From the NCBI GenBank assembly GCA_046348365.1, contig JAXMEL010000002.1, positions 251,960 to 283,959 on the forward strand: DNA of 32,000 bases, read 5' to 3'. Origin of the DNA: Burkholderiaceae bacterium (GTDB lineage Bacteria > Pseudomonadota > Gammaproteobacteria > Burkholderiales > Burkholderiaceae_C). Each line of letters opens with the position of its first letter. The stretch's first letter is position 1. Shown in pieces: positions 6,956 through 24,998 of this stretch. The translations under genes and the position numbers were made by a program. Under the pieces are notes generated by a model, which searched no databases, was not told the DNA's origin, and saw only the letters and a list, made by a program, of their open reading frames with translations.

Positions 6956-7327
6956 ATGAGCACCGCACGATCGCCCACACCGTCGCACGAGCACCACGTG
7001 ATGGTCGACGGCCGGCCGATCGCCGTCGACAGCGAGGGCTACCTGCTGCATCTGTCGGACTGGTCCGAAGCCTTCGCGCGCGCGCTCGCCGCGCGCGAGG
7101 GCCTGGTGCTCACGGCCGATCACTGGGAGCTGATCCGCTTCCTGCGCGAGCACTACGCCGAGCACGGCGTGCAGCCGCAGGTGCGCGTGATGATCCGCCA
7201 CTTCAGCGCGCGCTGGGGCCGCGAGCGCGGCAGCAACCACCACCTGCACGAGCTGTTTCCGCGCGGCGGGCCGCAGAAGCAGGGCAACCGGCTCGCCGGC
7301 CTGCTGCGCACCAAGGGCGAACACTGA
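6956..7327 (+). CDS. DsrC/TusE-family protein lacking both conserved C-terminal cysteines (no Cys at all)
   Basis: ATG 6956 lies 8 nt after the dsrN stop. The 123-aa product has the family core [15 protein letters not shown]...[12 protein letters not shown]...[13 protein letters not shown]. The tail is [14 protein letters not shown], whereas TusE/DsrC have ...K(A/C)..IAGLPKP.(G/K)C(V/I). Confidence 0.75.
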
Positions 7328-11129: not shown

Positions 11130-11164
11130 TTTTTCTTTGATTGCGCGGTGCCTAGGATCGCCCC

Positions 11165-12382
11165 ATGAAACCGCTCGTACGCCCTCATGGCGGCGGGGCC
11201 CTGCGCCCGTTGTTGCTGGCCGGCGCCGAGCTCGCGGCAGAACGCGCGCGTGCCGCCACGCTGCCGAAGATCCGCGTCAGCTCGCGCGAGCGCGGCGACA
11301 TCATCATGCTGGGCATCGGCGGCTTCACGCCGCTCGACGGCTTCATGGGCAGCGCCGACTGGCGCGGCGTGTGCGACACCATGCGCATGGCCTCGGGCCT
11401 CTTCTGGCCGATCCCGATCACGCTGTCGACCGACGCCGGCAGCGCCGGCGCGATCCAGCCCGGCCAGCACGTGGCGCTGACCGACCCCGACGACGGCCAC
11501 GTGCTGGCGACGATGCGCGTCGACGAGAAGTACGGCATCGACAAGGCGCATGAATGCGTGCGCATCTTCAAGACCACCGACGTGGAGCATCCCGGCGTCA
11601 AGATGGTGATGGAGCAGGGCGAGGTGAATCTCGCCGGCCCGGTCAAGGTGCTGTCGCAGGGCGGCTTCCCCGAGAAGTACGGCGAGCTGTTCCTCACGCC
11701 CGAGCAGACGCGCAAGCTGTTCACCTCGCTCGGCTGGTCGCGCATCGCGGCGTTCCAGACGCGCAACCCGATGCACCGCTCGCACGAATACCTGGCCAAG
11801 GTGGCGATCGAGGTCTGCGACGGCGTGCTGGTGCATTCGCTGCTCGGCGCGCTCAAGCCCGGCGACATCCCGGCCGAGGTGCGCACCGAAGCCATCGCCG
11901 TGCTAGCGAAGAACTACTTCGTGCCGTCCACACTGGTGCAGGCGGGCTACCCGCTCGACATGCGCTACGCCGGCCCGCGCGAGGCGCTGCTGCATGCCCT
12001 GTTCCGCCAGAACTACGGTTGCTCGCACCTGATCGTCGGGCGCGACCATGCCGGCGTGGGCAGCTACTACGGGCCGTTCGAGGCCCATCACATCTTCGAC
12101 GAGATCCCGGCCGACGCGCTCGAGACGCGGCCGCTGAAGATCGACTGGACGTTCTGGTGCTACCGCTGCGGCGGCATGGCCAGCGCGCGCACCTGCCCGC
12201 ACGACGAGAAGGATCGCCTGCTCGTCTCGGGCACCAAGCTGCGCAAGTGGCTGTCCGAGGGCGACGAGGTGCCGGCCGAATTCAGCCGGCCCGAGGTGCT
12301 CGACGTGCTGCGCAAGTATTACGCCGGCCTCGCGGCCGATGAACGCGTGGAAGTGAAGCTCACGGGGCACTCCGCCCGCTGA
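11165..12382 (+). CDS. sat: Sulfate adenylyltransferase (dissimilatory-type ATP sulfurylase)
   Basis: The 405-aa product has motifs [13 protein letters not shown] and GRDHAGVG. aprBA follow directly. Confidence 0.9.
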
Positions 12383-12404
12383 ACGAAACAAGGAGCGACG
12401 ACAA

Positions 12405-12875
12405 ATGCCGACCTATGTGCGAACCGACAAGTGCGATGGCTGCAAGGGCCAGGACAAGACCGCGTGCATGTACATCTGCCCGCACGACCTGATGAAGCTC
12501 GACAAGGACGGCTCCGAGACCGGCCATGCGATGCGGGCCTTCAACCAGGAGCCCGAGCAGTGCTGGGAGTGCTACTCCTGCGTGAAGATCTGCCCGCAGA
12601 ACGCGATCGAGGTGCGGCATTACGCCGACATCGTGCCGCTCGGCGGCTCGGTGCAGCCGCTGCGCGGCTCCGACTCGATCATGTGGACGATCAAGTTCCG
12701 CAACGGCACGCTCAAGCGCTTCAAGTTCCCGACCCGCACCACCGAGGAGGGCTCGATCCAGCCCTACGCGGGCAAGACCATGCCCAAGCTGGCCGACATC
12801 GACAAGCCGGGCTACTTCACGCCCAGCGGCGGCTACCGCAAGGGCCGCGACGGCGAACTGCTGCGTGTGAAGTGA
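12405..12875 (+). CDS. aprB: Adenylylsulfate (APS) reductase beta subunit
   Basis: AAGGAG lies about 9 nt upstream of the ATG. The N-terminus MPTYVRTDKCDGCKG...CMYICPHD is typical of AprB. A second cluster motif (CWECYSCVKICP) is present. The product is 156 aa. Confidence 0.9.
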   Translation: MPTYVRTDKCDGCKGQDKTACMYICPHDLMKLDKDGSETGHAMRAFNQEPEQCWECYSCVKICPQNAIEVRHYADIVPLGGSVQPLRGSDSIMWTIKFRNGTLKRFKFPTRTTEEGSIQPYAGKTMPKLADIDKPGYFTPSGGYRKGRDGELLRVK

Positions 12876-12907
12876 TCGGCTGAACCCCAGAACCAAGCGA
12901 GAGAAAC

Positions 12908-14935
12908 ATGGGAACCTTCGAGAACCCCGAAGTCGTCCAGGAAGACCTGGACATCCTGCTGATCGGCGGCGGCATGGCCTGCTGCGGAGCGGCCTACGAG
13001 ATGATGCGCTGGGCCGAGGCCGTGAAGGCCGAGACCGGCGTCGACCTCAAGATCAAGCTGGTCGACAAGGCCGCGATGGACCGCTCCGGCGCGGTCGCGC
13101 AGGGCCTGTCGGCGATCAACACCTACATCGGCCCCGAGCAGGACCCGGCCGACTACGCGCGCATGGTCTCGAATGACCTGATGGGCATCACGCGCGACGA
13201 CCTCGCCTACGACCTCGGCCGCCATGTCGACGAATCGGTGCACCTGTTCGAGGAATGGGGCCTGCCGATCTGGAAGACCGACGCCGACGGCGTGCGCCAC
13301 GACGGCGCCGAGAGCCAGAAGGAAGGCCTGCCCGCGCTGAAGGACGGCGGCAAGCCCGTGCGCTCGGGCAAGTGGCAGATCATGATCAACGGCGAGAGCT
13401 ACAAGTGGATCGTCGCCGAGGCGGCCAAGAAGGCGCTCGGCCTCGACCGCATCCAGGAGCGCGTGTTCATCGTCAAGCTGGTGAATGACAAGAAAGACCC
13501 GAGCCGCATCGCCGGCGCGGTGGGCTTCTCGGTGCGCGAGAACAAGATCTACGTCTACAAGGCCAAGGCGGTGCTGCTGGCCGCCGGCGGCTGCGTCAAC
13601 CTGTTCCGCCCGCGCTCGGTGGGCGAGGGCACCGGCCGCGCGTGGTACCCGGTGTGGAACGCCGGCAGCACGTACTCGATGGCCGCCGAGGCCGGCGCCG
13701 AACTCACGATGATGGAAAACCGCTTCGTGCCGGCGCGCTTCAAGGACGGCTACGGCCCGGTGGGCGCGTGGTTCCTGCTGTTCAAGGCCAAGGCCGTCAA
13801 CGCCTACGGCGAAGACTACATGGTCAAGAACAAGGCGTTGCTCGACGACTACCCGCCGTACGGCCAGGCCGCCGTGCCGGCCTCGTGCCTGCGCAACCAC
13901 CTGATGCTCAAGGAGATGAAGGAAGGCCGCGGCCCGATCTACATGGACACGGTCACCGCGCTCGGCAAGCTGCGCGAGACGCTGAGCCCGAAGGAAGTGA
14001 AGCACCTCGAAGCCGAGGCGTGGGAAGACTTCCTCGACATGTGCATCGGCCAGTGCGGCATCTGGGTCGGCGAGAACATCGAACCCGAGAAGAAGATGAG
14101 CGAGCTGATGCCCACCGAGCCCTACCTGCTCGGCTCGCACTCGGGCTGCTGCGGCATCTGGGTGTCGGGCCCGACCGACCTCGGCGCGCCGACCGCGGCC
14201 GACGGCGACCTCGACGGCGTGCCGGCGCACCTGCCGCGCGGCTGGAGCTGGGGCTACCGCTCGATGACCACCGTGAAGGGCCTGTTCACCGCCGGCGACG
14301 GCGTCGGCGCCTCGGGCCACAAGTTCAGCTCGGGCTCGCACGCCGAAGGCCGCATCGCGGCCAAGGCGATGGTCAAGTACGCGCTCGACAACAAGGACTT
14401 CAAGCCCGAGCTCGACACCGATGCGGCCACGCTCGCCGAGCAGATCTACGCGCCGGTGCGCACCTTCCTGAAGCACAAGGACTACACCACCGCGATCGAC
14501 GTCAACCCGCACTTCATCACGCCCAAGATGCTGCAGTTCAGGCTGCAGAAGATCATGGACGAGTACGTGGCCGGCGTCGCCACCTACTACAACACCAACG
14601 ACGTGATGCTCAAGGTGGCCGAAGAGAAGCTCGAGCTGCTGAAGGAAGACGCGGCCAAGATGCGCGCCAAGGACCTGCACGAGCTGCTGCGCGCCTGGGA
14701 GAACTACCACCGCATCCTGACCGCGGAAGCGCACATGAAGCACATCCAGTTCCGCGAGGAATCGCGCTACCCGGGCTTCTACTACCGCACCGACAAGAAC
14801 TGCGTCGACGAGAAGAACTGGCACGTGTTCGTCAACTCGACCTACGACAAGAACACCAAGAAGTGGACCTGCTTCAAGCGCAAGCACGTCGATCTGGTCG
14901 ACAAGAGCAAGCTCTTCAAGCCGGCCGCGCATTGA
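12908..14935 (+). CDS. aprA: Adenylylsulfate (APS) reductase alpha subunit (FAD)
   Basis: The 675-aa product has an N-terminal FAD fold (DILLIGGGMACCGAAYE) and a fumarate-reductase/AprA-like body. It lies directly downstream of aprB. Confidence 0.9.
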   Translation: MGTFENPEVVQEDLDILLIGGGMACCGAAYEMMRWAEAVKAETGVDLKIKLVDKAAMDRSGAVAQGLSAINTYIGPEQDPADYARMVSNDLMGITRDDLAYDLGRHVDESVHLFEEWGLPIWKTDADGVRHDGAESQKEGLPALKDGGKPVRSGKWQIMINGESYKWIVAEAAKKALGLDRIQERVFIVKLVNDKKDPSRIAGAVGFSVRENKIYVYKAKAVLLAAGGCVNLFRPRSVGEGTGRAWYPVWNAGSTYSMAAEAGAELTMMENRFVPARFKDGYGPVGAWFLLFKAKAVNAYGEDYMVKNKALLDDYPPYGQAAVPASCLRNHLMLKEMKEGRGPIYMDTVTALGKLRETLSPKEVKHLEAEAWEDFLDMCIGQCGIWVGENIEPEKKMSELMPTEPYLLGSHSGCCGIWVSGPTDLGAPTAADGDLDGVPAHLPRGWSWGYRSMTTVKGLFTAGDGVGASGHKFSSGSHAEGRIAAKAMVKYALDNKDFKPELDTDAATLAEQIYAPVRTFLKHKDYTTAIDVNPHFITPKMLQFRLQKIMDEYVAGVATYYNTNDVMLKVAEEKLELLKEDAAKMRAKDLHELLRAWENYHRILTAEAHMKHIQFREESRYPGFYYRTDKNCVDEKNWHVFVNSTYDKNTKKWTCFKRKHVDLVDKSKLFKPAAH

Positions 14936-16087: not shown

Positions 16088-16978
16088 ATGAGCGACACGC
16101 CGCCCTTCGTTGCCAGCCCGGTCACGCCGCAAACGCTCGAGGGCAGCGCGCCGCTGCAGTTCCAATGCCGCAAGGGCATCGCGTGCTGGAACGCCTGCTG
16201 CAGCAACATCGACATCGCGCTGACGCCGGTCGACATCGTGCGGCTGAAAGCCCGGCTCGAGCTGGCGTCGTCGCAGTTCCTGGCGCAGTACACGTTGCCG
16301 TACGAGATGGAGAAGGACGGCATCGCCGGCGTCAAGCTGAAGCCGGTGGACGGCGGCACCGCCTGCCGCTTCATGACCGACGCCGGCTGCAGCGTCTACG
16401 ACGACCGCCCCACCGCCTGCCGCTACTACCCCGTGGCGCTGCTGTCGATGCGCAAGCAGGACGAGGCGGTGGACCGCCAGTACTACGCCATCGTGCGCGA
16501 GGACCACTGCCTCGGCCACCGCGAGCCGCGCACGCAGACCATCGACGCCTACCGCGCCGAGCAGGGCGTGGTCGAGTACGACGAACTCGCGCGCGGCTGG
16601 CGCCAGCTGGTGCTGAAGAAGAAGAGCACGGGCCCGACGGTGGGCAAGCCGAGCAAGCGCAGCCTCGAGCTGTTCTTCATGACCTGCTACGACGTCGACC
16701 GCTTCCGCTCGTTCGTGGCGAGCGACGCCTTCTGCGGCGTGTTCGACCTGCCCGACGACGAGCTGCGCCAGGCGCTGATCGACGACCATGCGCTGCTGCT
16801 GTTCGGCTACCGCTTCCTGCGCCAGGTGCTGTTCGGCGAGATGACGATCCCGATGAAGGCCGCCAGCGTCGAGCAGCGCCGCACCCGCATGGTCGAGCAG
16901 CGCGCGCGCATCGAGCGCGAGGCCGCCGAGCGGCTGGCGCGCGACGACGACGACGGCGGCGCCTACGTCGACGTCTGA
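16088..16978 (+). CDS. YkgJ/UPF0153-family Cys-cluster (putative Fe-S/Zn) protein with long C-terminal extension
   Basis: ATG is at 16088. The family motifs are C-x6-C-x3-CC (CRKGIACWNACC) and ACRFMTDAGCSVYDDRPTACRYYP. The product is 296 aa and has no signal peptide. Confidence 0.7.
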   Translation: MSDTPPFVASPVTPQTLEGSAPLQFQCRKGIACWNACCSNIDIALTPVDIVRLKARLELASSQFLAQYTLPYEMEKDGIAGVKLKPVDGGTACRFMTDAGCSVYDDRPTACRYYPVALLSMRKQDEAVDRQYYAIVREDHCLGHREPRTQTIDAYRAEQGVVEYDELARGWRQLVLKKKSTGPTVGKPSKRSLELFFMTCYDVDRFRSFVASDAFCGVFDLPDDELRQALIDDHALLLFGYRFLRQVLFGEMTIPMKAASVEQRRTRMVEQRARIEREAAERLARDDDDGGAYVDV

Positions 16979-16980
16979 CG

Positions 16981-16996
16981 GCGCGGCGCGCCGCGC
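16981..16996 (+). terminator. 16-nt perfect GC palindrome followed by cttgtgtt (weak terminator candidate)
   Basis: The palindrome gcgcggcgcgccgcgc begins 3 nt after the YkgJ-like stop. Only a short T-containing tract follows. Confidence 0.25.
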
Positions 16997-17006
16997 CGCG
17001 CTTGTG

Positions 17007-17027
17007 TTGCAACCCTGGCCGTTGCAG
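17007..17027. promoter_or_regulatory. Dyad TGCAAC-N7-GTTGCA, candidate enhancer (UAS) for a bacterial enhancer-binding protein
   Basis: The sequence is ttgcaaccctggccgttgcag. It is centred about 100 bp upstream of the sigma54-type promoter candidate at 17107-17122. Confidence 0.3.
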
Positions 17028-17106
17028 AAAGCCGCGAGCACGGCGCAGCGCACACGCTGATTGCAGTTTTCATCGCGCCAGGCGTGCGCCGGCGCCGGCA
17101 AGCGCT

Positions 17107-17122
17107 TGGCATGCAAGCTGCT
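17107..17122 (+). promoter_or_regulatory. Sigma54 (-24/-12) promoter candidate TGGCAT-N5-CTGC
   Basis: The sequence is tTGGCATgcaagCTGCTt. GG-N10-GC spacing is exact, and 14 of 16 positions match TGGCACG-N4-TTGCW. It lies about 65 nt upstream of the first TusA-like ORF. A sigma54-dependent activator is encoded at 29832-31253. Confidence 0.45.
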
Positions 17123-17187
17123 TGTCGACTGCTCGCGAGGAAGCCGAGGTGACGACGAGCAGCTCAGGTTGGTGGTCGCGCTGGCGC

Positions 17188-17481
17188 ATGCGCCGCGCGC
17201 ACGAACCCGCGCCGCCGCGACCCGAGGTCGACCTGCCGGGCCTGGGCCCGACGCCGATCGCGCAGTCGGTCGACTGCATCGGCGCCATGTGCCCGCGCCC
17301 GCAACTGTTGACGATGAAGGTGCTCGGCCATATGCAGATCGGAGAAGTGATCGAAGTGCGCTGCGACAGCGCGCCCGCGGTCGAGGGGTTTCCCGCCCTC
17401 GCGCTGTCGCTGACCAGCACGCACCTGGCCACGATCCGCGAGCCCGCCGGCTGGCGCGTCTATCTGCGCAAGGGCCAGTAG
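17188..17481 (+). CDS. TusA/SirA-family sulfur-carrier protein (CPxP motif)
   Basis: The product contains VDCIGAMCPRPQLLT, matching the TusA D-x-x-G-x-x-CPxP signature. An alternative in-frame GTG at 17149 lies 6 nt after AGGAAG and may be the real start. Confidence 0.7.
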   Translation: MRRAHEPAPPRPEVDLPGLGPTPIAQSVDCIGAMCPRPQLLTMKVLGHMQIGEVIEVRCDSAPAVEGFPALALSLTSTHLATIREPAGWRVYLRKGQ

Positions 17482-17492
17482 ACGTGCGTTCG

Positions 17493-18935
17493 ATGGCCCC
17501 GGCCCGACCCCTCGCGACCGGCGCGCCGCGCCTGGCGCTTGCCCGCTCGCTCGGGCTGCTGGCGGCGATGGCGGCGCTGTCGCTGTGGGCGCTGGTGATC
17601 GACCGGCGCTTCGCCTACATCCTCGTGTACGCCTGGTTCGGCGTCGGCTACGGCCTGTTGCTGCAGTACGGTCGCTTCTGCATGGCCTCGGCGGTGCGCG
17701 ACCTGTTCGCGGTGCGCGTGCCACGCATGGCGGTGGCGATGATGATCGCGGTCGCGCTGTACGCGCTGGTGGCCGCCGGCGTCGGGCTGGCCGGACTGAG
17801 CACGTTCCACCCCAACCCGCTGGGCTGGCACATCGTCGTGGGCGCGACGATCTTCGGCTTCGGCATGGTGTTCACCGGCGGCTGCGCGTCGGGTTCGCTG
17901 TACAAGGCGGGCGAGGGCAACCTCGGCTCGGCGCTGGTGATCGTCGCGATCTCGTTCTCGCAGGCGCTGGTGGTCACCGCCGGCGGCTGGGCCGACGCGC
18001 TCGCACCGGCGTCGTGGACCGCGTCGGCGCGAGCCAAGGAGATGCCGGCCGAGCTCACCGTCACGCAAGGCTGGTTCGACCTCTTCACCGCCGGCTATGT
18101 GTGGGACCTGAAGGCGACGACCGCAGCGCAGGCGCTCGGCGTGGCCGAATCGCCGCTGCTGGCCGCCGCTGTCAACTTGCTGCTGGTGGCCCTGCTGCCG
18201 GTGGGACTGGTGTTGCTCGCGCTGTACGCGGTGTATTTCCGCCCCGGCTACATGCGCCGCGAGCGCATCGCCGCGCCGACGCTGCGCCAGCACGCACGCG
18301 GCCTGTGGGCGATGGCCACCTCGTCGCGCAACACCTCGATCGCCGGCGTCGGGCTCGGCGTGCTCGCCGGCGCGCACATGTGGGCCACCGGCGTGATGCG
18401 CGAGCATTTCGGCGTGGGCAATTTCGGCGAGCTGCTGGCGGCGATGAACCGGCGCGACGGCCTGTCGATCCAGGATACGGTGTTCGACCCCGGCTACTGG
18501 TACATCACGACCCAGGAAGCGCAGTGGGGCGGCTGGCTGCTCGAGCGGCTCGGGCTGACGATGCGCGACAACCTGTACTTCGGCCTCGACAACGGCCTGC
18601 CCAACCCGCTGCTCAATGCACCCGGCTTCATGTCGGTCGGCATCATCGTCGGCGCGGCGGCGATGGCGATGGCGCGGCGCGAGTTCAAGTGGAAGACGCC
18701 GTCGCTCGAGACGGCGTTGTTCGCGCTCGCCGGCGGCGCGCTGATGGGCCTGGGCGCACGCGTGGCGATGGGCTGCAACATCGGCGCGTTCTTCGCCACC
18801 GTGACCAACGGCGACCCCAGCGGCTGGCTGTTCCTGGCCGGCATGGCGCTCGGCGCCTGGCTCGGTGTGAAGGTCTTCACCTGGTGGGTCGATTGGCAGT
18901 CGGCGCGGCGCGGCGACGAACTGTCGCTGTCCTGA
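17493..18935 (+). CDS. YeeE/YedE-family (TsuA-like) sulfur-compound transporter, two fused sulf_transp halves
   Basis: The 480-aa polytopic product starts at ATG 17493, or possibly GTG 17484. It carries conserved Cys motifs (GRFCMASAVRDLF, FTGGCASGSLYKAGEG, AMGCNIGAFF). Confidence 0.8.
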   Translation: MAPARPLATGAPRLALARSLGLLAAMAALSLWALVIDRRFAYILVYAWFGVGYGLLLQYGRFCMASAVRDLFAVRVPRMAVAMMIAVALYALVAAGVGLAGLSTFHPNPLGWHIVVGATIFGFGMVFTGGCASGSLYKAGEGNLGSALVIVAISFSQALVVTAGGWADALAPASWTASARAKEMPAELTVTQGWFDLFTAGYVWDLKATTAAQALGVAESPLLAAAVNLLLVALLPVGLVLLALYAVYFRPGYMRRERIAAPTLRQHARGLWAMATSSRNTSIAGVGLGVLAGAHMWATGVMREHFGVGNFGELLAAMNRRDGLSIQDTVFDPGYWYITTQEAQWGGWLLERLGLTMRDNLYFGLDNGLPNPLLNAPGFMSVGIIVGAAAMAMARREFKWKTPSLETALFALAGGALMGLGARVAMGCNIGAFFATVTNGDPSGWLFLAGMALGAWLGVKVFTWWVDWQSARRGDELSLS

Positions 18936-18992
18936 GGCGCGGCCGAGCGAGCGCCATCCGCCAGGGCCACACAACAGCGAAGGAGCAGCGAA

Positions 18993-19244
18993 GTGACGGT
19001 GTCCTTCACCCAGACCGCCGACGGCCAGTGGAAGCTCGACGTGTGCGGCTACTCGTGCCCGCATCCGCAGCTCTACACCAAGAAGGCGATGCAGAAGCTC
19101 GCCAGCGGCGACACGCTGACCGTGGTGTTCGACAACCCGTCGTCCGGCGAGTCGATTCTGGCGATGTGCGAGGCCGACGGCAACGACATCGTCGAGCGCA
19201 CCGACAGCGGTGGCCAGTACGTCTGGACGATCCGCAAGGCCTGA
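18993..19244 (+). CDS. Second TusA/YedF-like sulfur-carrier protein
   Basis: The start is GTG 18993. The 83-aa product contains LDVCGYSCPHPQLYTKKAM (CPxP signature). Confidence 0.75.
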   Translation: MTVSFTQTADGQWKLDVCGYSCPHPQLYTKKAMQKLASGDTLTVVFDNPSSGESILAMCEADGNDIVERTDSGGQYVWTIRKA

Positions 19245-19249
19245 AAGCG

Positions 19250-19558
19250 ATGCTGTTCGGCCTGATCGTCACCGACCAGCGGCACGCCGGCCACGCGGCC
19301 GGACTGTTGGCCGCGGCCGCGGCGCGCGGCTGGGACGCGCGTTGCTTCCTGACCGACTCGGGCGTGCTGGCGCTGAGCGATGAAGCCTTCATGGCGCAGG
19401 CGAGCGCGCGCCCCAACACCGTGGCGGCGTGCAAGCACAGCCTGGATCACCTGGCGCCGCAGTTCGATGCGGGCTCGGTCAAGGGCACGGTGGTCATCGG
19501 CGGCCAGTTCCAGGGCGCGAAGCTGACGCAGTCGGCCGACGCGGTGCTGGTGCTCTGA
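19250..19558 (+). CDS. DsrE/DsrF-like small protein
   Basis: The ATG lies 5 nt after the preceding stop. The 102-aa product has an N-terminus (MLFGLIVTD...) and C-terminus (...SADAVLVL) in the DsrE/F/H pattern. An internal Cys is present (VAACKHS). GC3 is high. Confidence 0.55.
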   Translation: MLFGLIVTDQRHAGHAAGLLAAAAARGWDARCFLTDSGVLALSDEAFMAQASARPNTVAACKHSLDHLAPQFDAGSVKGTVVIGGQFQGAKLTQSADAVLVL

Positions 19559-19578
19559 ACAGGAAGGCGAGACGCGCG

Positions 19579-19836
19579 ATGGCCAAGCGGATCCTGGTGG
19601 CGGCGATCGACAAGCCGGTGGAGGCGCTGCGCGTCGCCGCCGGCCTGACGCTCATCGACGCCTCGCTGAGCGTCGCGCTGTGGGGCCCGATGCCCACCGG
19701 CGAGGCGGCACAGGCGCAACTCGAGGCGCTGCAGTTCGCCGAGGTGCCGGTCGACGAGCTGCCCGCAGCAACAGGCGAACGCTGGCTCGAGCTGGCGCGG
19801 CGCATCGTCGCGAGCGACGCGGTGTACTGCCTATGA
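19579..19836 (+). CDS. Small DsrH/TusB-like protein (tentative)
   Basis: The 85-aa product begins MAKRILVAAIDKPVEALRVAAGL and ends ...ASDAVYCL, resembling the DsrF/H family ends. GC3 is high. Confidence 0.4.
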   Translation: MAKRILVAAIDKPVEALRVAAGLTLIDASLSVALWGPMPTGEAAQAQLEALQFAEVPVDELPAATGERWLELARRIVASDAVYCL

Positions 19837-20042
19837 CGAAGGCCGCGAAAGTGTTGATCGTGCACACGGCGTCGGGCGCGCCCGACGCCGGCCCGGGGCA
19901 CCCGCTGGCGCAGGCGCTGGCGCAGCTCGGCGCGTCGGTACGCGAGCTGCCGCTGGCCGCGCCGTACGACGCGCTGCTCGACGCGATCGCCGACGGCTGG
20001 ATGCCGGTGGCCTGCAAGTCGCCCGGCGCGGCACCGCCATGA
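19833..20042 (+). CDS. Small hypothetical protein (69 aa), possibly third member of a DsrEFH-like trio
   Basis: The start shares an ATGA overlap with the previous stop. The product begins MTKAAKVLIVHTASG and contains ...WMPVACKSP. GC3 is very high, supporting coding. I recognise no family. Confidence 0.35.
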   Translation: MTKAAKVLIVHTASGAPDAGPGHPLAQALAQLGASVRELPLAAPYDALLDAIADGWMPVACKSPGAAPP

Positions 20043-20095
20043 GTCGAACGAGGCGCGGCGACGCGCTCATCCCACCCCTGCAGGAGAACGCACCC

Positions 20096-21574
20096 ATGCA
20101 ACAACGAGTCTGGACCCTGCTGATGCTGGCCGGCAGCGCCGCGCTGGCGCTGACGCTGCACGGCTGCGGCGGCGGCGCGGCCGAGAGCAACTCGGTCGCC
20201 AGCCGCATCAAGGTGAACTCACCGGCGCAGCTCGCCCAGACGTCGGCCGACAGCTACGACGACAACGTCGACGGCATCGTCACCGGCGCCACGCTGAAGC
20301 GCTGGATGTCCGACTGGCCGCGCCAGCGGCCGGCCGGCGTGAGCGGCAAGCTGGTCATCTTCCAGGCCACCGCCGGCCCGGCAGGCGCCGAGTACATCAA
20401 GCCCGACGGCGTCAATGTCTTCACCTATCTCTCGCCCAGCAGCGAGTGGATCCAGACGCGCCGCAACGGCGTGATCGAGACGCCGAGCATGGTGCCCGAC
20501 GGCGCGACGATGGACGCCCTGCTCAAGAAGTACAACATCGATCCCGAGCGCGACATGATCGTCGCGGCGATGGGCACCGGCAGCACCGCCAACGCGATGG
20601 GGCAGGGCCGGATCTGGTACGCGCTGCGCTACTGGGGCATGGACCGCTCGCACCTCGCCGTGCTCAACGGCGGCAACCAATGGCTCAACGGCAACGGCAT
20701 GGCCACCGCCGATTTCCAGGCCACCGCGTCGGTCGCACCCAACAGCGGCACGGCGAGCGTCAAGAGCCTGCTGGTGGACAACACGCAGCTCCAGGCCACG
20801 ATGCAGGACCTGCTGGCCGCGCTGCCCGGCGGCGACTACAACGTCAAGAACGACGGCGTGCTGATCTGGGACGCGCGCAGCCTCGGCCAGTACAGCGCCG
20901 GCATGATGGTCGAGCGCGGCGAGGACGTCGACCCCAACACCGCCGGCGCGCAGCCCTGCACCACGGCCTACTGCACGCCCACCGACACGTCCAACTACAA
21001 GTGGACGTTCCAGAACAACGGGTCGCGCCAGGGCCATCCGTGGGGCACGCTGCAGCTGCAGTACACCAACCTGCTCGATTCGACCAAGGGCTTCGGCTAC
21101 CGGCCGAAGTCGGTGCTGGCCGCGTACCTCAGCGGCGCACCCGACGCCAACGGCATCGGCTTCGTCGATTCCAGCTATGCGCTCGTCGGCGCCGGCAACG
21201 CCTACCAGGAAGGCGACACGATCTACGTCTATTGCGAAACCACCTTCCGCGCGATGATCACGGGCATCACCAGCGCCGTGATCCTCGGCAAGCCGACGCG
21301 CTTCTACGACGGCGCGATGGTCGAGTGGAACTCGCTGTCCTATATCGCCGACAACAAAGGCAATGCGATCCTGCCGGCCAACTCACACTGGCGCACCGAC
21401 CTGCGCTCGTACTTCCGGCCCGCGCCGAGCTCCGCCGATGTCGCACCGCGCACGATCGTCGGTCCCTACGCCAACTCGGCGCAGGCGATCGTCAACGCCG
21501 ACAAGACCTACAAGACCGGCGAGAGCGACAGCTCCGACGGCGGCGGCCTGCCCTCCAACCCCTGCGGCGGCTGA
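20096..21574 (+). CDS. Tandem-rhodanese lipoprotein (ExtH-like)
   Basis: AGGAGA lies 8 nt upstream of the ATG. The product has a signal plus lipobox (LALTLHGC). The first rhodanese-like domain lacks a catalytic Cys (RIWYALRYWGMDRSHLAVLNGG). The second has an active-site loop (YVYCETTFRA) and FYDGAMVEWNS. The product is 492 aa. Confidence 0.7.
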   Translation: MQQRVWTLLMLAGSAALALTLHGCGGGAAESNSVASRIKVNSPAQLAQTSADSYDDNVDGIVTGATLKRWMSDWPRQRPAGVSGKLVIFQATAGPAGAEYIKPDGVNVFTYLSPSSEWIQTRRNGVIETPSMVPDGATMDALLKKYNIDPERDMIVAAMGTGSTANAMGQGRIWYALRYWGMDRSHLAVLNGGNQWLNGNGMATADFQATASVAPNSGTASVKSLLVDNTQLQATMQDLLAALPGGDYNVKNDGVLIWDARSLGQYSAGMMVERGEDVDPNTAGAQPCTTAYCTPTDTSNYKWTFQNNGSRQGHPWGTLQLQYTNLLDSTKGFGYRPKSVLAAYLSGAPDANGIGFVDSSYALVGAGNAYQEGDTIYVYCETTFRAMITGITSAVILGKPTRFYDGAMVEWNSLSYIADNKGNAILPANSHWRTDLRSYFRPAPSSADVAPRTIVGPYANSAQAIVNADKTYKTGESDSSDGGGLPSNPCGG

Positions 21575-21646
21575 GCGGCAGCATGTGGCAACTGCACGGC
21601 CTGCACGGCCCGCGCGGCACGCCGCAGCGCGCGCGTCGGAGCCTGC

Positions 21647-22891
21647 ATGATGGCTGTGCCGCTGCCGCAGCGCCGGCTGGCCGTGCGAGCCCTGCTGCTG
21701 GCGCGACTGGCGCTGCTGGCGACGCTCATCCTGCCGGCGGGCTGCCAGCGCACCGATCCGGCGGCGCTGGAGCGCTTCGTCGACGCGCATTGGGCCGATC
21801 CGCTGCCGCCGCAGGGTGCGCCGCCGCCGTCGTTCAGCGCGCTCGAGGCATCGCTGTCGCCGCAGGCCTGCGGCCAGTGCCACCCGGCGCAGTGGCGCGA
21901 CTGGCAGACCAGCCTGCACAGCCGCAGCGTCGGGCCCGGGCTGACGTGGCAGCTTCACCTGCTCGACCAGGGCCGTGCCAACCGCTGCCTGCGCTGCCAC
22001 GCACCGCTGGCCGAGCAGAAGGCGCTGCTCGCGCGCGAGCATGGCTGGCCGGCGCAGCCGGCTGGGCCGCCGCCGGCCTACGTCGAAGCGACGCTGGCGC
22101 ACCAGGGCTTGGTGTGCGCGGCGTGCCACGTGCGCGGCCATCGCCGCTACGGGCCGCCGGCGCGCACGCGCGCGGACGCCAGCTCGCACGACGGCTTCGT
22201 GGCGACCGATGGGTTCAGCGACAGCCGCTTCTGTGCCGCGTGCCACCAGTTCCAGAACGACGGCCCGCGCGTGGCCGGCAAGCTGCACGAAGACACCTAT
22301 GCGCAGTGGCAGGCGAGCGGCATGGCCGGCGGGCAAAGTTGTCAGTCGTGCCACATGCCCGACCGTCGCCACCTCTGGCGCGGCATCCACGATGCCGAGA
22401 TGACGCGTCGCGCGATCGACGTGCAGCTCACTGTCGAGGCCGTGGCACCGGGGCGCTTCGAGGCGCGAGCGACGGTGCGCAACATCGGCGCGGGACACCA
22501 CTTCCCCACCTACATGGTGCCCAAGGTCGAACTGCAGTTCGTGCGCGTGGAGCGCGACGGACGAACCACCGAGCTCGGCCGGCAGGTGATCGGCTGGAGC
22601 GTGGATACCGCGATCACGCGCGAGATCGAAGACACACGCATTCCGGCCGGGCAATCGCGCCGCTTCGTACAGCGCTTCGATGCGCCGGCGGCCGCCGGCT
22701 GGAGCGTGGAGTTGCGCATCTCGGTGCATCCGGGCGAGCACTACGAGCGCACGTTCCGCGACAGTCTGGCTCGCGCGCAGCGGCTGCCTGCTGCGGCGCG
22801 GCCGTTGCTCGAGGAAGCGCTGCGCCGCGTGCAGGCGACGCGCTACGAACTGATGCGGCTGCGCCAGCGACCGAACGGCAACGGGTCTTGA
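21647..22891 (+). CDS. Pentaheme c-type cytochrome, probable lipoprotein (ExtK-like)
   Basis: GGAG lies 5 nt upstream of the ATG. The N-terminus carries a signal with LILPAGC. Five CxxCH motifs are present (CGQCH, CLRCH, CAACH twice, CQSCH). The product is 414 aa. Confidence 0.8.
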   Translation: MMAVPLPQRRLAVRALLLARLALLATLILPAGCQRTDPAALERFVDAHWADPLPPQGAPPPSFSALEASLSPQACGQCHPAQWRDWQTSLHSRSVGPGLTWQLHLLDQGRANRCLRCHAPLAEQKALLAREHGWPAQPAGPPPAYVEATLAHQGLVCAACHVRGHRRYGPPARTRADASSHDGFVATDGFSDSRFCAACHQFQNDGPRVAGKLHEDTYAQWQASGMAGGQSCQSCHMPDRRHLWRGIHDAEMTRRAIDVQLTVEAVAPGRFEARATVRNIGAGHHFPTYMVPKVELQFVRVERDGRTTELGRQVIGWSVDTAITREIEDTRIPAGQSRRFVQRFDAPAAAGWSVELRISVHPGEHYERTFRDSLARAQRLPAAARPLLEEALRRVQATRYELMRLRQRPNGNGS

Positions 22892-22922
22892 GGAGCCGGC
22901 GGCGCGCGCCGGCGCTGCCGCG

Positions 22923-23279
22923 ATGATGCAACGCACCGTCGCCGGCGGCCGCTCGGCCATCGTGTGGGTCGTGCTCGCCGCGTCCGTGGCGCAGAGCGCA
23001 TTCGTCGCCACGGCTGCGGCCCAAGGCCTGCCGACGCCGGAAGCGGCCGCCTCCGCCGCCGTCATGCCACCCGCCGCGGCGCCGGCGTCGCGGTTGAAGT
23101 ACCGATCCAAAGGCCCGGTGTGCGCCTGCTCGTCCGATCTCGACGAGGCCGCGATCGAGCGCGCCCTGGCCGCGCGCTTCGGCGCGAGCGCCGCCACGCC
23201 GTCGCCTGGCAGCGCGCCAGCGCCGCCGCGCCGAGCGGCATCCCGTCCACCACTGCAACCACAGGAGCAGCGTCGATGA
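22923..23279 (+). CDS. Small exported Ala/Pro-rich protein with CAC motif (ExtJ-like position)
   Basis: The product has a signal peptide (IVWVVLAASVAQSAFVATAAAQG). GC3 in this frame is clearly higher than in the alternative open frame. Its stop shares an ATGA overlap with the next gene. Confidence 0.5.
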   Translation: MMQRTVAGGRSAIVWVVLAASVAQSAFVATAAAQGLPTPEAAASAAVMPPAAAPASRLKYRSKGPVCACSSDLDEAAIERALAARFGASAATPSPGSAPAPPRRAASRPPLQPQEQRR

Positions 23280-23800
23280 CACGCCACAGCGAGAGCACTT
23301 CGGGGGAGACCGCACGAGCCCGGCAACGGCCGCGTCGGCGAGCGCGAGCGCGCAGCCTGGGCACCGTCTGCTTCAGCGTGCTGTTGGCGCTGCTGCTGTG
23401 GTCGGCCGGGTTCGATCGCCGCGACGCCGACGCGCGCGCCGACGCCGCCGGTTGGGGTGGCGAGGCCGCGCAGGCCCTGGCCGAAGACCCGCTGCACTGG
23501 CTGCCGATCACGCCGGCCAACGCCTGCGGGCTGGGCGCATCGAGCTGCTTCAAGTGCCACAACGGCAAGCGTGCCGCGGCGCCCGCGGCCGACCCGGCCA
23601 AGGCGCCGTGGCACGTGCACCACGCCAAGGTCAACAACTCATGCGCGGGCTGCCACAAGGGCAACCCGCGCGTGATGAAGGAAGACATCGCGCACACCAA
23701 GATGCTGGCCAAGCCACGCGACGATTCGGGCGGCGCTTGCAGCGGCTGCCACGCCTCCGACCTCGCCAAGGTCCAGACCGCCTACACCGGAGGGAAGTGA
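23276..23800 (+). CDS. Triheme c-type cytochrome with N-terminal membrane anchor/signal (ExtL-like)
   Basis: AGGAG lies 8 nt upstream of the ATG. An Arg-rich N-tail is followed by one hydrophobic segment (LGTVCFSVLLALLLWSAGF). Three CxxCH motifs are present (CFKCH, CAGCH, CSGCH). The product is 174 aa. Confidence 0.75.
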   Translation: MTRHSESTSGETARARQRPRRRARARSLGTVCFSVLLALLLWSAGFDRRDADARADAAGWGGEAAQALAEDPLHWLPITPANACGLGASSCFKCHNGKRAAAPAADPAKAPWHVHHAKVNNSCAGCHKGNPRVMKEDIAHTKMLAKPRDDSGGACSGCHASDLAKVQTAYTGGK

Positions 23801-23801
23801 G

Positions 23802-24998
23802 ATGAGCCACCACACCGCAACGAGGCGTCCGGCCGTTCCCGGCCGGGCCGCACGCAAGGCCCTCTTGCTCGCCGCGGCCGCGCTGCCGCTCGGCGCTGCG
23901 GCCGGGCCGACGATCGAGTTCGGCTCGGGCAGCAACCTGAACATCACCTATTCGCTGCAGGGCTGGCTGCAGGGCCGCGGCTTCACGTCGTCGGACAACG
24001 GCGCGCGCTCATGGGACATGTTCCTGCGCCGCAACCGGCTCACCTTCAGCGGCCAGTACAACGACCAGATCGGCTTCTACGCCCAGCTCGAGGCCAGCGG
24101 CGACAGCCGCGGCGGCGCCGACGACCGCAGCGTGTTCTTCCGCGACGCCTACATCAGCTTCGACTACAGCGACGAGCTGCGCTTCATCGCGGGGCGGTTC
24201 AAGAATGCTTTCTCGCGCGAAAACCTCGAGGCCTGCCTCGAGCCGCTGACGATGGACCGCGCCGAGGTGCTCTCCTACACGCCGTTCGCCGGCACGCGCG
24301 ACACCGGCGTCGCCGTTTGGGGCAACCTGTTCAATGCGCGTGTGCAGTACCGCCTGATGGTGGCCGACGGCCGCGAAGGCAGCTACGTGCCCAAGGACAG
24401 CCCGCGCGTGACGGGGCGCGTGCACGTGAGCCTGTGGGACCCGGAGTTCAACTACGGCTACCTCGGCACCTACCTCGGCACGCAGAAGGTGCTGACGATC
24501 GGCGCCGCCTACGACACCCAGAAGGACGTGGCGTGGGCCAACTACCTCTCGCGCGCCGACGTCAAGAGCTACAAGGCCACGACGCTCGACGCCTTCATGG
24601 AGCTGCCGCATGCCACCGGCGTCTACACGCTGTCGGCGGCAACCTTCAAGTACGACACCGGCGGCGCCTTCGGCCAGTCGCCCGACCCCGAGCTGAACGC
24701 CAACTCCGATCTGAAGGGCTGGTATCTCAAGGCCGGCTACATGCTGCCGTCGAAGGTCGGCCCGGGCCGGCTGCAGCTCTTCGGGCGCCACGAGCGGCTC
24801 GACTACGCCGTGAAGACCGGCATCGCGCAGTACTACGACAACACCTGGAACAGCCTCGGCGCCCACTACTACTTCGACGGCCAGCGCATCAAGGTCAGCG
24901 CCGAGCTGGCCAAGGTCCGCTTCGACACGCCGCACCCGCTCAACCAGGCGCTGCGCGACTACCGGCAGGCTACACTGGGTGTGCAGTTGATCTTCTGA
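23802..24998 (+). CDS. Outer-membrane beta-barrel porin (OprO/P-like or ExtI-like)
   Basis: The ATG lies 1 nt after the previous stop. A signal peptide ends ...LPLGAAAG. The sequence shows alternating amphipathic beta-strand patterning with many Y/F/G/N/D residues. The C-terminus is ...TLGVQLIF, with a terminal Phe. The product is 398 aa. Confidence 0.75.
   Translation: MSHHTATRRPAVPGRAARKALLLAAAALPLGAAAGPTIEFGSGSNLNITYSLQGWLQGRGFTSSDNGARSWDMFLRRNRLTFSGQYNDQIGFYAQLEASGDSRGGADDRSVFFRDAYISFDYSDELRFIAGRFKNAFSRENLEACLEPLTMDRAEVLSYTPFAGTRDTGVAVWGNLFNARVQYRLMVADGREGSYVPKDSPRVTGRVHVSLWDPEFNYGYLGTYLGTQKVLTIGAAYDTQKDVAWANYLSRADVKSYKATTLDAFMELPHATGVYTLSAATFKYDTGGAFGQSPDPELNANSDLKGWYLKAGYMLPSKVGPGRLQLFGRHERLDYAVKTGIAQYYDNTWNSLGAHYYFDGQRIKVSAELAKVRFDTPHPLNQALRDYRQATLGVQLIF

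Follow-up and report, generated by a model that had tools for sequence, protein, structure and literature searches.

How sulfur crosses the outer membrane to reach the cytoplasmic sHdr and rDsr pathways of neutrophilic sulfur oxidizers is an open question. A candidate route is suggested by an array of eleven genes (g1–g11) in a 32,000-nucleotide (nt) stretch of a Burkholderiaceae genome (contig JAXMEL010000002.1, positions 251,960–283,959), the whole of which we analyzed and hereafter call the window. Here, genes for sulfur carriers and an inner-membrane sulfur transporter stand directly ahead of genes for a rhodanese-like lipoprotein, multiheme cytochromes and an outer-membrane porin. On balance, and with confidence slightly better than even, we read the array as a sigma-54-regulated, envelope-spanning pathway that takes in sulfur in anionic or zero-valent form and passes it on to the sulfur-oxidizing machinery of the cytoplasm, put together from two known modules.

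At a window G+C content of ~70%, raw lists of open reading frames (ORFs) are noisy, and genes were picked by third-position G+C and start-codon inspection. The array comprises 11 ORFs, all on the + strand between 17188 and 24998, with spacings of 11, 57, 5, 20, -4, 53, 72, 31, -4 and 1 nt. An Azohydromonas contig with independent public gene calls carries the same 11 genes, followed by a kinase gene and a sigma-54 regulator gene. Its g1–g11 products measure 87, 481, 83, 103, 87, 93, 494, 422, 101, 177 and 396 amino acids (aa), and its g6 stop and g7 start overlap. Our gene map and these calls agree with an initial annotation of the window, made from its letters, which had listed the eleven same-strand ORFs and their gaps.

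17188-17481, + strand: g1, TusA-family sulfur carrier with a CPRP motif (Pfam TusA; alternative GTG start at 17149)
17493-18935, + strand: g2, YeeE/YedE-family inner-membrane sulfur transporter, 480 aa, three Cys motifs (PF04143)
18993-19244, + strand: g3, TusA-family sulfur carrier with a CPHP motif, the TusA of the YTD cluster described below (Pfam TusA)
19250-19558, + strand: g4, DsrE-like protein, candidate DsrE type II, invariant Cys61 (Pfam DsrE via orthologues)
19579-19836, + strand: g5, small conserved protein at the YTD chp1 (DsrF type II) position (synteny)
19833-20042, + strand: g6, small conserved protein at the YTD chp2 (DsrH type II) position (synteny; 4-nt overlap with g5)
20096-21574, + strand: g7, rhodanese-like lipoprotein, 492 aa, distant ExtH relative (NCBIfam ExtH, below cut-off)
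21647-22891, + strand: g8, pentaheme c-type cytochrome lipoprotein, MccSep/ExtKL homologue (family profile, five CxxCH)
22923-23279, + strand: g9, small exported protein with an RLK[FY]R...C-x-C motif (motif conserved across loci)
23276-23800, + strand: g10, triheme c-type cytochrome with an N-terminal hydrophobic anchor and an extra Cys84, ANACGLGASSCFKCH (alignment)
23802-24998, + strand: g11, OprO/P-type outer-membrane anion porin, ExtI family, 398 aa (NCBIfam porin_ExtI, Pfam Porin_O_P)

The predicted locations of these products span the envelope, as the initial annotation had proposed. The features that it had named are all seen in the sequence: the lipoboxes, five and three CxxCH motifs in the two cytochromes, CPxP in both TusA proteins and a C-terminal Phe in the porin.

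By family matches and gene order, g2–g6 is a YTD cluster (YedE/YeeE, TusA, DsrEFH type II), with an extra TusA gene, g1, in front. Published YTD clusters run YedE, TusA, DsrE-like, chp1, chp2, and the last three products form a complex termed DsrEFH type II, known from structure prediction in both 2026 papers and from biochemistry too in one (PMC13293266, PMC13047784). The complex takes sulfur from TusA and hands it to DsrC, and its F and H subunits do not align with their canonical counterparts (PMC13293266, PMC13047784). One of these papers sets a score threshold of 80 bits for its DsrEFH type II hidden Markov models and places substrate specificity, of necessity, in the uptake system (PMC13293266). 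The YTD cluster was first linked to sulfur disproportionation, and in one analysis of a four-phylum data set complete clusters occurred only in Desulfobacterota and Nitrospirota.

The carriers and the transporter of this half are readily assigned. Both g1 (E = 3.9e-12) and g3 (E = 6.5e-20) match Pfam TusA, with MCPRP and SCPHP motifs respectively, and g1 is present in nearly all related loci. PF04143 is covered over its whole length by g2 (E = 2.2e-48). The NCBIfam TsuA models give g2 103 and 93.6 bits and are not reached (cut-offs 400 and 645); indeed, g2 lies below every NCBIfam equivalog cut-off, those for TsuA and for selenium-related YedE alike. What had been taken for a fused YeeE/YedE channel is a 480-aa protein with three Cys motifs that contains one full-length PF04143 domain with an insertion, and not a fusion.

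The three small proteins are assigned with differing strength. None of the window's g4, g5 and g6 proteins matches Pfam or NCBIfam directly. Pfam DsrE is matched by 10 of 19 g4 orthologues, at best with E = 2.6e-5. Their Cys61 does not vary; we infer that it is the equivalent of Cys67 in the Electronema DsrE-like protein. A g4 profile found no match among PDB sequences, DsrEFH 2HY5 included. The g5 and g6 families are conserved across loci at the chp1 and chp2 positions. An AlphaFold2 model of g5 (predicted local distance difference test, pLDDT, 94.7) has a Rossmann-like alpha/beta fold of four strands and three helices, for which Foldseek found no significant match in the PDB; g5 orthologues drew nothing from Pfam even at E = 10, and profile-profile comparison detected no relatedness among g4, g5 and g6. 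The annotated trio of DsrE/F/H-like proteins therefore holds for g4, through its orthologues, and for g5 and g6 by position only.

The other half, g7–g11, is by homology a relative of the Geobacter extH-I-J-KL set: it encodes relatives of ExtH, ExtKL/MccSep and ExtI, plus a CxC protein and a triheme cytochrome. The porin is the clearest member, aligning end to end with NCBIfam porin_ExtI NF040900 at 316.8 bits (cut-off 150); it also matches Pfam Porin_O_P, and NCBI names it porin ExtI. As judged from its sequence, g7 is homologous to ExtH and shares its lipoprotein architecture, and is not its equivalog. Its homologues in 80 genomes are 53–85% identical. Invariant in alignment A1 of the family are the lipobox (LHGC in g7), a Cys288/Cys293 pair, the rhodanese active-site loop YCETTFRAM and, at the extreme C-terminus after a Gly-rich linker, NPCGG (window 21560-21574). 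Compared with solved structures, only a 50-residue active-site segment of g7 matched a sulfurtransferase (E = 0.18), and a look-up of the exact window sequence returned no record.

The cytochromes and the small exported protein also have conserved motifs. The pentaheme protein g8 has a PAGC lipobox, five invariant CxxCH motifs and no further cysteines. Its family profile matches MccSep 9wt8 (E = 8e-12, residues 29-288) and the Thermochromatium tepidum pentaheme c552 5ze8 (E = 3.6e-9). MccSep (ExtKL) is a selenoprotein polysulfide reductase essential to elemental sulfur (S0) respiration in Geobacter (PMC13510729). Between g8 and g10, most loci hold g9-type ORFs with the RLK[FY]R...C-x-C motif, which tblastn had missed; g9 and 17 orthologues gave no NCBIfam or Pfam match, and the ExtJ signature was not detected in them. 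The triheme g10 keeps three invariant CxxCH motifs and an invariant Cys84 seven residues before the first (alignment A5), and matches cytochrome c7 and ExtS models weakly. From its position, Cys84 may be the cysteine of a His/Cys heme ligand pair. A separate observation concerns g8 in the gammaproteobacterial loci L068, L073 and L074, which has a hydrophobic N-terminus and no lipobox Cys, so that membrane attachment differs between clades.

The two halves are almost always found together. When the g7 family was used to search a set holding a single genome for each species, 80 loci emerged, whose neighbors were located by tblastn with window proteins; a reverse search with the g4 family as query gave metagenome loci. 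YeeE, TusA and g4 genes adjoin the rhodanese gene in 75 of the 75 genome loci with enough upstream sequence, and the pentaheme and porin genes are present in 66 of 68 with enough downstream sequence. Of the DsrE-centered metagenome loci that extend far enough downstream, 43 of 46 contain g7 and 31 of 34 the porin. In this survey of gene neighborhoods, of the kind that the initial annotation had called for, the halves are linked far beyond chance. The three exceptions (L089, L090 and L092) form one clade, with a g4 ~61% identical to the window's. Their g2–g6 stand alone, followed by genes for Lon protease and saccharopine dehydrogenase, without the upstream TusA, the porin, or the rhodanese-lipoprotein or cytochrome module; in L090 the gene for a different, 430-aa two-rhodanese protein lies 5' of YedE. 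The g1–g6 block is inverted in 15 of the 75 genomes, which leaves the halves divergent yet still adjacent. Together, this inversion and the YTD-only clade mark the halves as separable modules whose association is strongly maintained.

Carriers include Thiobacillus, Sulfuricellaceae, Sideroxydans, Gallionella, Rubrivivax, Azohydromonas, Hydrogenophilus and Usitatibacteraceae, as well as Thiogranum, Thiohalomonadales, Chromatiales and one isolate, Thiohalobacter thiocyanaticus HRh1, whose cluster lies at:

NZ_QZMU01000001.1, 1,971,148-1,992,545: the cluster of Thiohalobacter thiocyanaticus HRh1 (locus L073)

Regulatory elements and genes are conserved along with the array. Those of the window are:

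17022-17026 and 17061-17065, + strand: two TTGCA boxes, ~40 bp apart, candidate enhancer (upstream activating sequence) sites, conserved upstream of the promoter
17107-17122, + strand: sigma-54-type -24/-12 element, TGGCATGCAAGCTGCT, read from the sequence and conserved in relatives
28349-29832, + strand: PAS-domain sensor histidine kinase (Pfam PAS, HisKA, HATPase_c; GTG start inferred from relatives)
29829-31253, + strand: NtrC-type sigma-54-dependent response regulator (Pfam Response_reg, Sigma54_activat, HTH_8)

The element TGGCATGCAAGCTGCT, already flagged in the initial annotation as a sigma-54-like promoter candidate, is a good -24/-12 match, and such an element lies 5' of g1 in 70 of 76 related loci (background 0.03 per 350 nt). 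In 56 of 71 loci, both a proximal and a distal TTGCA box keep a constant spacing to the -24 element (background 0.03 per 40 nt). In some loci, among them some from Gammaproteobacteria, the boxes are full palindromes, ATTGCA-N3/4-TGCAAT. All 62 genome loci that reach far enough past the porin carry the sigma-54 regulator gene 3' of it, and the kinase gene directly follows the porin in relatives. The kinase, whose start was compared with those in loci L001 and L018, has a periplasmic loop of only ~11 aa. A sigma-54 promoter, paired boxes and a PAS kinase with an NtrC-type regulator make up a classical enhancer-dependent regulon, in which the boxes are probably the binding sites of the cluster's own NtrC-type regulator.

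Does one promoter serve the whole array? Over 16900-28500, a consensus scan found no sigma-70 promoter, and terminator-like sites occur at chance rate (5 seen, 4.6 expected); the sole such site within the array falls inside the YeeE coding sequence. Junction sequences fold no better than shuffled ones (z = 1.3 for g6–g7, 0.0 for g7–g8 and 0.2 for g2–g3). On the consensus scan and the folding we reject, for this window, a terminator or a sigma-70 promoter within the array near 20.05 or 21.6 kb, in keeping with the annotated lack of a convincing terminator inside the array. The hairpin at 28280-28305 that had been offered as the terminator itself does not hold up, having no U-tract and unexceptional folding (z = -1.0). 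The window's g6–g7 spacer of 53 nt has no promoter element, and if g7 starts at an alternative ATG at 20039 it overlaps the g6 stop. Elsewhere, a second sigma-54 element precedes g7 in 18 of 76 loci, mostly gammaproteobacterial ones with a long g6–g7 spacer and some divergent ones. The proposed single transcription unit is accordingly a likely arrangement for g1–g11 in the window's lineage, as far as its sequence signals tell, and does not hold in general, given the divergent g1–g6 blocks and the second element.

What route could these products form? The sulfur species, in all likelihood polysulfide or some other form of sulfane sulfur, would cross the outer membrane by way of the ExtI-type anion porin g11. 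The g7 lipoprotein would then bind sulfane sulfur as a persulfide, with Cys380, the Cys288/Cys293 pair and the flexible C-terminal NPCGG arm as candidate sites. Next, g9 together with g8 and g10 might perform or support S–S bond chemistry, either cleaving the sulfur chain or re-reducing carrier cysteines. The YedE/YeeE channel g2 would deliver sulfur to the TusA proteins g1 and g3, from which it would pass to the DsrEFH type II complex (g4–g6), then to sHdr- or DsrC-linked oxidation machinery, and on to the AprBA and Sat enzymes encoded nearby. The PAS kinase and NtrC-type regulator would drive the sigma-54 promoter with its two TTGCA boxes. Our preference for this route follows from the family assignments, the YTD gene order, the homology of g8 to MccSep, the conserved linkage, the regulation, the sulfur-oxidizing hosts, such as Thiobacillus, Sulfuricellaceae, Thiogranum, Thiohalobacter and Sideroxydans, the Apr/Sat/sHdr neighbors and the conserved cysteines of g7, g9 and g10; its substrate, direction of transport and cytochrome role are drawn from sequence and homologues.

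Several observations weigh against this route. The best NCBIfam match of g2 is selenium-related YedE/FdhT (135.6 bits, below cut-off), and the NCBIfam names of the Ext genes refer to selenite/tellurite reduction. Since Foldseek and profile comparisons were uninformative, the identity of g5 and g6 as DsrF and DsrH rests on synteny. Over residues 4-436, g7 scores 86.2 bits against NCBIfam ExtH NF040901 (E = 2.3e-24), short of the cut-off of 200, and its AlphaFold2 model from a 19-sequence alignment is of low confidence (pLDDT 39.7). Catalysis by MccSep requires a selenocysteine (Sec), Sec325, and a heme-ligating Cys239 (PMC13510729). Members of the g8 family have Met or Leu where MccSep has Sec325 (PTYM/PTYL), and their Cys239 segment reads GKLHEDTY, without the heme-ligating Cys; g8 lacks both catalytic residues, so its chemistry is not simply transferable from Geobacter. 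For the cytochromes, the cluster encodes neither a quinone-linked electron partner nor any other obvious one. Finally, an insertion sequence (IS) dimer, described below, may uncouple the regulators from the cluster in this genome.

Could the halves be two independent modules that are merely co-regulated? YTD would then bring in periplasmic sulfane sulfur that SQR or Sox produce, and the other half would perform an unrelated task, such as extracellular electron exchange or periplasmic turnover of polysulfide or thiosulfate. The separability of the halves speaks for this, as seen in the divergent genomes, the clade with YTD alone and the second sigma-54 element. So do the Geobacter Ext cluster, which lists no YTD genes (PMC5877670), the YTD clusters of Desulfobacterota and Nitrospirota, for which outer-membrane neighbors are unmentioned, and the presence of iron oxidizers (Sideroxydans, Gallionella) among the carriers. 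We nonetheless regard independence as unlikely: adjacency is near-universal in two proteobacterial classes and survives inversion, the second promoter, where present, is also of sigma-54 type, and the g6–g7 junction, whether 53 nt (window) or overlapping (Azohydromonas), has no terminator. Moreover, a small OprO/P-type anion porin with a rhodanese lipoprotein is unlike an Mtr/Pcc conduit.

The conserved cysteines of g7 and g10 invite two further readings of the periplasmic step. In the first, sulfur loading is oxidative, as with SoxAX and SoxY: two electrons would go to the cytochromes as sulfide or thiosulfate joins the C-terminal Cys arm of g7, with g10 acting via a His/Cys-ligated heme formed by Cys84, and the bound sulfane would be imported. 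SoxY has a C-terminal carrier motif, GGCGG (PMC6067878), to which the NPCGG terminus of g7 with its Gly-rich linker bears a resemblance; in g10 an extra Cys lies seven residues ahead of the first heme motif, and the MccSep authors remark on a kinship with the His/Cys heme chemistry of TsdA and SoxAX (PMC13510729). This is a likeness of motifs only, heme ligation being unreadable from sequence, and searches of Pfam, NCBIfam and structure sequences found no homology to SoxY, SoxZ, SoxA or SoxX, so that we judge oxidative loading improbable.

A second reading, in which we have as little confidence, sees the porin, rhodanese, CxC protein and cytochromes as a previously unrecognized heme-dependent persulfide-loading machine at the outer membrane. 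Sulfane sulfur would be loaded onto the SoxY-like NPCGG arm of g7 at the ExtI-type pore or through it, electrons would be handled by the Cys84-ligated heme of g10 and by the Sec-less MccSep homologue g8, and a defined series of cysteines would then carry the protein-bound sulfur to YedE, TusA and DsrEFH type II. If true, such a machine would supply the outer-membrane step that is missing from the account of how neutrophilic sulfur oxidizers use elemental sulfur and polysulfide.

Compared with these readings and with the favored relay of sulfur, a role in selenite or tellurite reduction, detoxification or assimilation fits the array poorly. Here the porin would be the entry for the oxyanion, its reduction would fall to the rhodanese and cytochromes, and YedE with a YedF-like TusA would import selenium. 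The NCBIfam models matching g7, g8, g10 and g11 all carry the name 'selenite/tellurite reduction operon', and g2's leaning toward YedE/FdhT is echoed by weak matches of both TusA proteins to YedF. Geobacter that has lost ExtI is impaired in reducing selenite and tellurite (PMC5877670), a cited paper bears a title on ExtI in selenite uptake and on ExtH localization, and MccSep oxidizes methyl viologen with selenite (PMC13510729). We nevertheless think a selenium or tellurium function quite improbable. With the exception of ExtI, scores against the selenium models are far below their cut-offs; the carriers are sulfur oxidizers, and the neighbors are sat-aprBA, rhodanese and sHdr genes. DsrEFH type II is a demonstrated sulfur transferase tied to Dsr (PMC13293266), ExtKL has since been shown to be the polysulfide reductase of S0 respiration (PMC13510729), and neither selD nor another selenium-utilization gene was seen in the window.

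Least probable, and in our view very much so, is a reductive role as in Geobacter, in which periplasmic polysulfide or S0 is reduced in respiration or disproportionation and YTD salvages or oxidizes part of it. The homology of g8 to the polysulfide reductase MccSep, the occurrence of ExtH and ExtI relatives in the same Geobacter gene set and the first association of YTD with disproportionation all point this way. Against this stand the absence from g8 of the Sec325 and Cys239 essential in MccSep (PMC13510729), the lack of a quinol-oxidizing partner such as ExtMNOPQ in the cluster, and hosts that are aerobic or denitrifying sulfur oxidizers with Apr/Sat and sHdr. We reject an electron conduit of the Mtr/Pcc type on the type of the barrel and the identity of the lipoprotein.

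In the window, the array is parted from its kinase and regulator genes by a mobile element:

24999-28272, + strand: tandem IS110-family dimer, not ancestral to the cluster (Pfam/NCBIfam scans and comparison with relatives)

The dimer starts directly after the porin stop and consists of two head-to-tail 1637-bp copies, 100% identical, with GAG common to the junctions; it could be real or an assembly artefact. Without it, the window matches its relatives, with the porin stop followed by a short hairpin and the kinase start GTG at 28349. Ahead of its transposase domain, each IS110 ORF carries an N-terminal extension of ~100 aa, which makes an internal position the probable true start. In the ~300 nt at their 5' end, the copies may encode the guide RNA typical of the IS110 family. 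An Rfam scan of the whole window gave no matches. Another mobile-element insertion may lie inside the cluster of metagenome locus L102, which is nearly identical to L103 and has ~1.8 kb extra between the rhodanese and pentaheme genes.

The surroundings of the array are rich in genes of sulfur metabolism. The window contains sat-aprBA at 11156-14935, a DsrC/TusE-like gene, a small rhodanese gene and an HdrB-like fragment, and no dsrAB; on the Azohydromonas contig, sHdr-type genes lie near the cluster. Of the claim that rDsr and sHdr genes flank the array, the HdrB-like fragment is present, and the rDsr part is only weakly true, the window having a DsrC/TusE-like gene and no dsrAB. This DsrC/TusE-family protein (6956-7327; Pfam DsrC E = 1.5e-33) appears to be without either of the two conserved C-terminal cysteines that we take to mark a functional DsrC. 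If that holds, its role may be non-catalytic or regulatory.

Other neighbors are noted for completeness. The segment 1-5530 opens with an SQR-like gene that the start of the window truncates and continues with one for a 652-aa GltD-like Fe-S flavoprotein (NCBIfam PRK12771, 728 bits), and the region also encodes a 4Fe-4S protein, preceded by a possible heme-motif region, and an NrfD-like membrane protein. The flavoprotein was assigned by scan and the others were read from translations, on which basis these genes look like a membrane-bound sulfur or polysulfide oxidoreductase module. Between 11156 and 16978, sat-aprB-aprA are followed by a gene for a Tll0287-like protein (PF11845), an unassigned ORF and a gene for a CxxCxxCC (YkgJ-type) protein just 5' of the cluster. 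The aprA and CxxCxxCC genes adjoin the cluster in L001, L017, L029 and L160 too, sometimes on its other side. In Azohydromonas (L081 17931-21485), ccmF, ccmG, ccmH and cycH lie directly downstream of the cluster regulator on the opposite strand.

How does the cluster compare with known systems? It is most like two of them, one for each half. Geobacter sulfurreducens extHIJKL(MNOPQS) likewise encodes together a rhodanese-like lipoprotein, an OprO/P-type porin, a small exported protein and a pentaheme cytochrome (PMC6148476, PMC5877670, PMC13510729), a set implicated in envelope chalcogen and S0 chemistry. The order here is H-K-small-triheme-I, in contrast to H-I-J-KL in Geobacter. The pentaheme protein lacks the Sec and heme-ligating Cys of Geobacter MccSep, and the cluster lacks the bc-type and large cytochrome genes of ExtMNOPQ. 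Unlike the Geobacter genes, which have a LysR regulator and hosts that reduce S0 or metals, it is joined to YTD and a sigma-54 two-component system and is carried by sulfur oxidizers. The Ext papers do note ExtI homologues in Thiohalobacter and Thioalkalivibrio, without gene context (PMC5877670), and the MccSep paper states that the outer-membrane route of polysulfide is unknown (PMC13510729). With published YTD clusters the array shares the order YedE, TusA, DsrE-like with a conserved Cys and two small genes, along with the proposed role, import of sulfane sulfur to DsrC or the oxidation machinery. It differs in its extra upstream TusA, in its beta- and gammaproteobacterial hosts with sHdr/Apr, and in being almost always joined to an outer-membrane and periplasmic module; the YTD papers leave porin, rhodanese-lipoprotein and cytochrome neighbors unmentioned (PMC13293266, PMC13047784).

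The closest precedent for the combination, a likeness by description only, is Desulfurivibrio dismutans RS05145-RS05170, where a porin gene is co-localized with genes for a lipoprotein sulfurtransferase and YeeE/YedE (PMC12142623). In a single sentence on this one Desulfobacterota genome, its authors suggest polysulfide import across the outer membrane; cytochromes, DsrEFH type II genes, a regulator or an analysis of conservation are not part of their account (PMC12142623). Our search of the full-text literature, with most subscription journals outside its scope, found no description of the combined 11+2-gene cluster in sulfur oxidizers. Thus each half is known, and their linkage appears to be undescribed. 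The impression of the initial annotation that the combined architecture was undescribed holds for sulfur oxidizers within that search, and is to be qualified by the halves having names already and by the Desulfurivibrio sentence.

Other systems resemble the cluster in part. In the YeeE/YeeD (TsuA/TsuB) system of thiosulfate uptake and the SoxT-type import that serves sHdr, a YeeE-family channel likewise works with a TusA-like acceptor to supply sulfur metabolism in the cytoplasm, unlike here without dedicated outer-membrane or cytochrome partners (PMC11582611). SoxYZ/SoxAX also place a Cys on a flexible Gly-rich C-terminus (GGCGG in SoxY, NPCGG here) beside c-type cytochromes, whereas the carrier here is a 492-aa rhodanese lipoprotein and no sequence homology was detected. 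Mtr/Pcc conduits also have a beta-barrel, multiheme cytochromes and a lipoprotein encoded together; the barrel here is a small, anion-selective OprO/P type, the lipoprotein a sulfurtransferase and the cytochromes carry only three and five hemes.

Against this background, the cluster, conserved in about 75 species-level genomes and many metagenomes, is a concrete and deletable candidate for the route by which sulfur enters, with a porin, a sulfurtransferase, a Cys-rich relay and cytochromes joined to YedE, TusA and DsrEFH. The label 'selenite/tellurite reduction operon' may mislead when it is attached to these genes in sulfur oxidizers, and the g8 family defines a Sec-less, Cys-less branch of MccSep. 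The cluster also connects the Geobacter Ext and the YTD/DsrEFH type II literatures, which are separate in the papers that we read.

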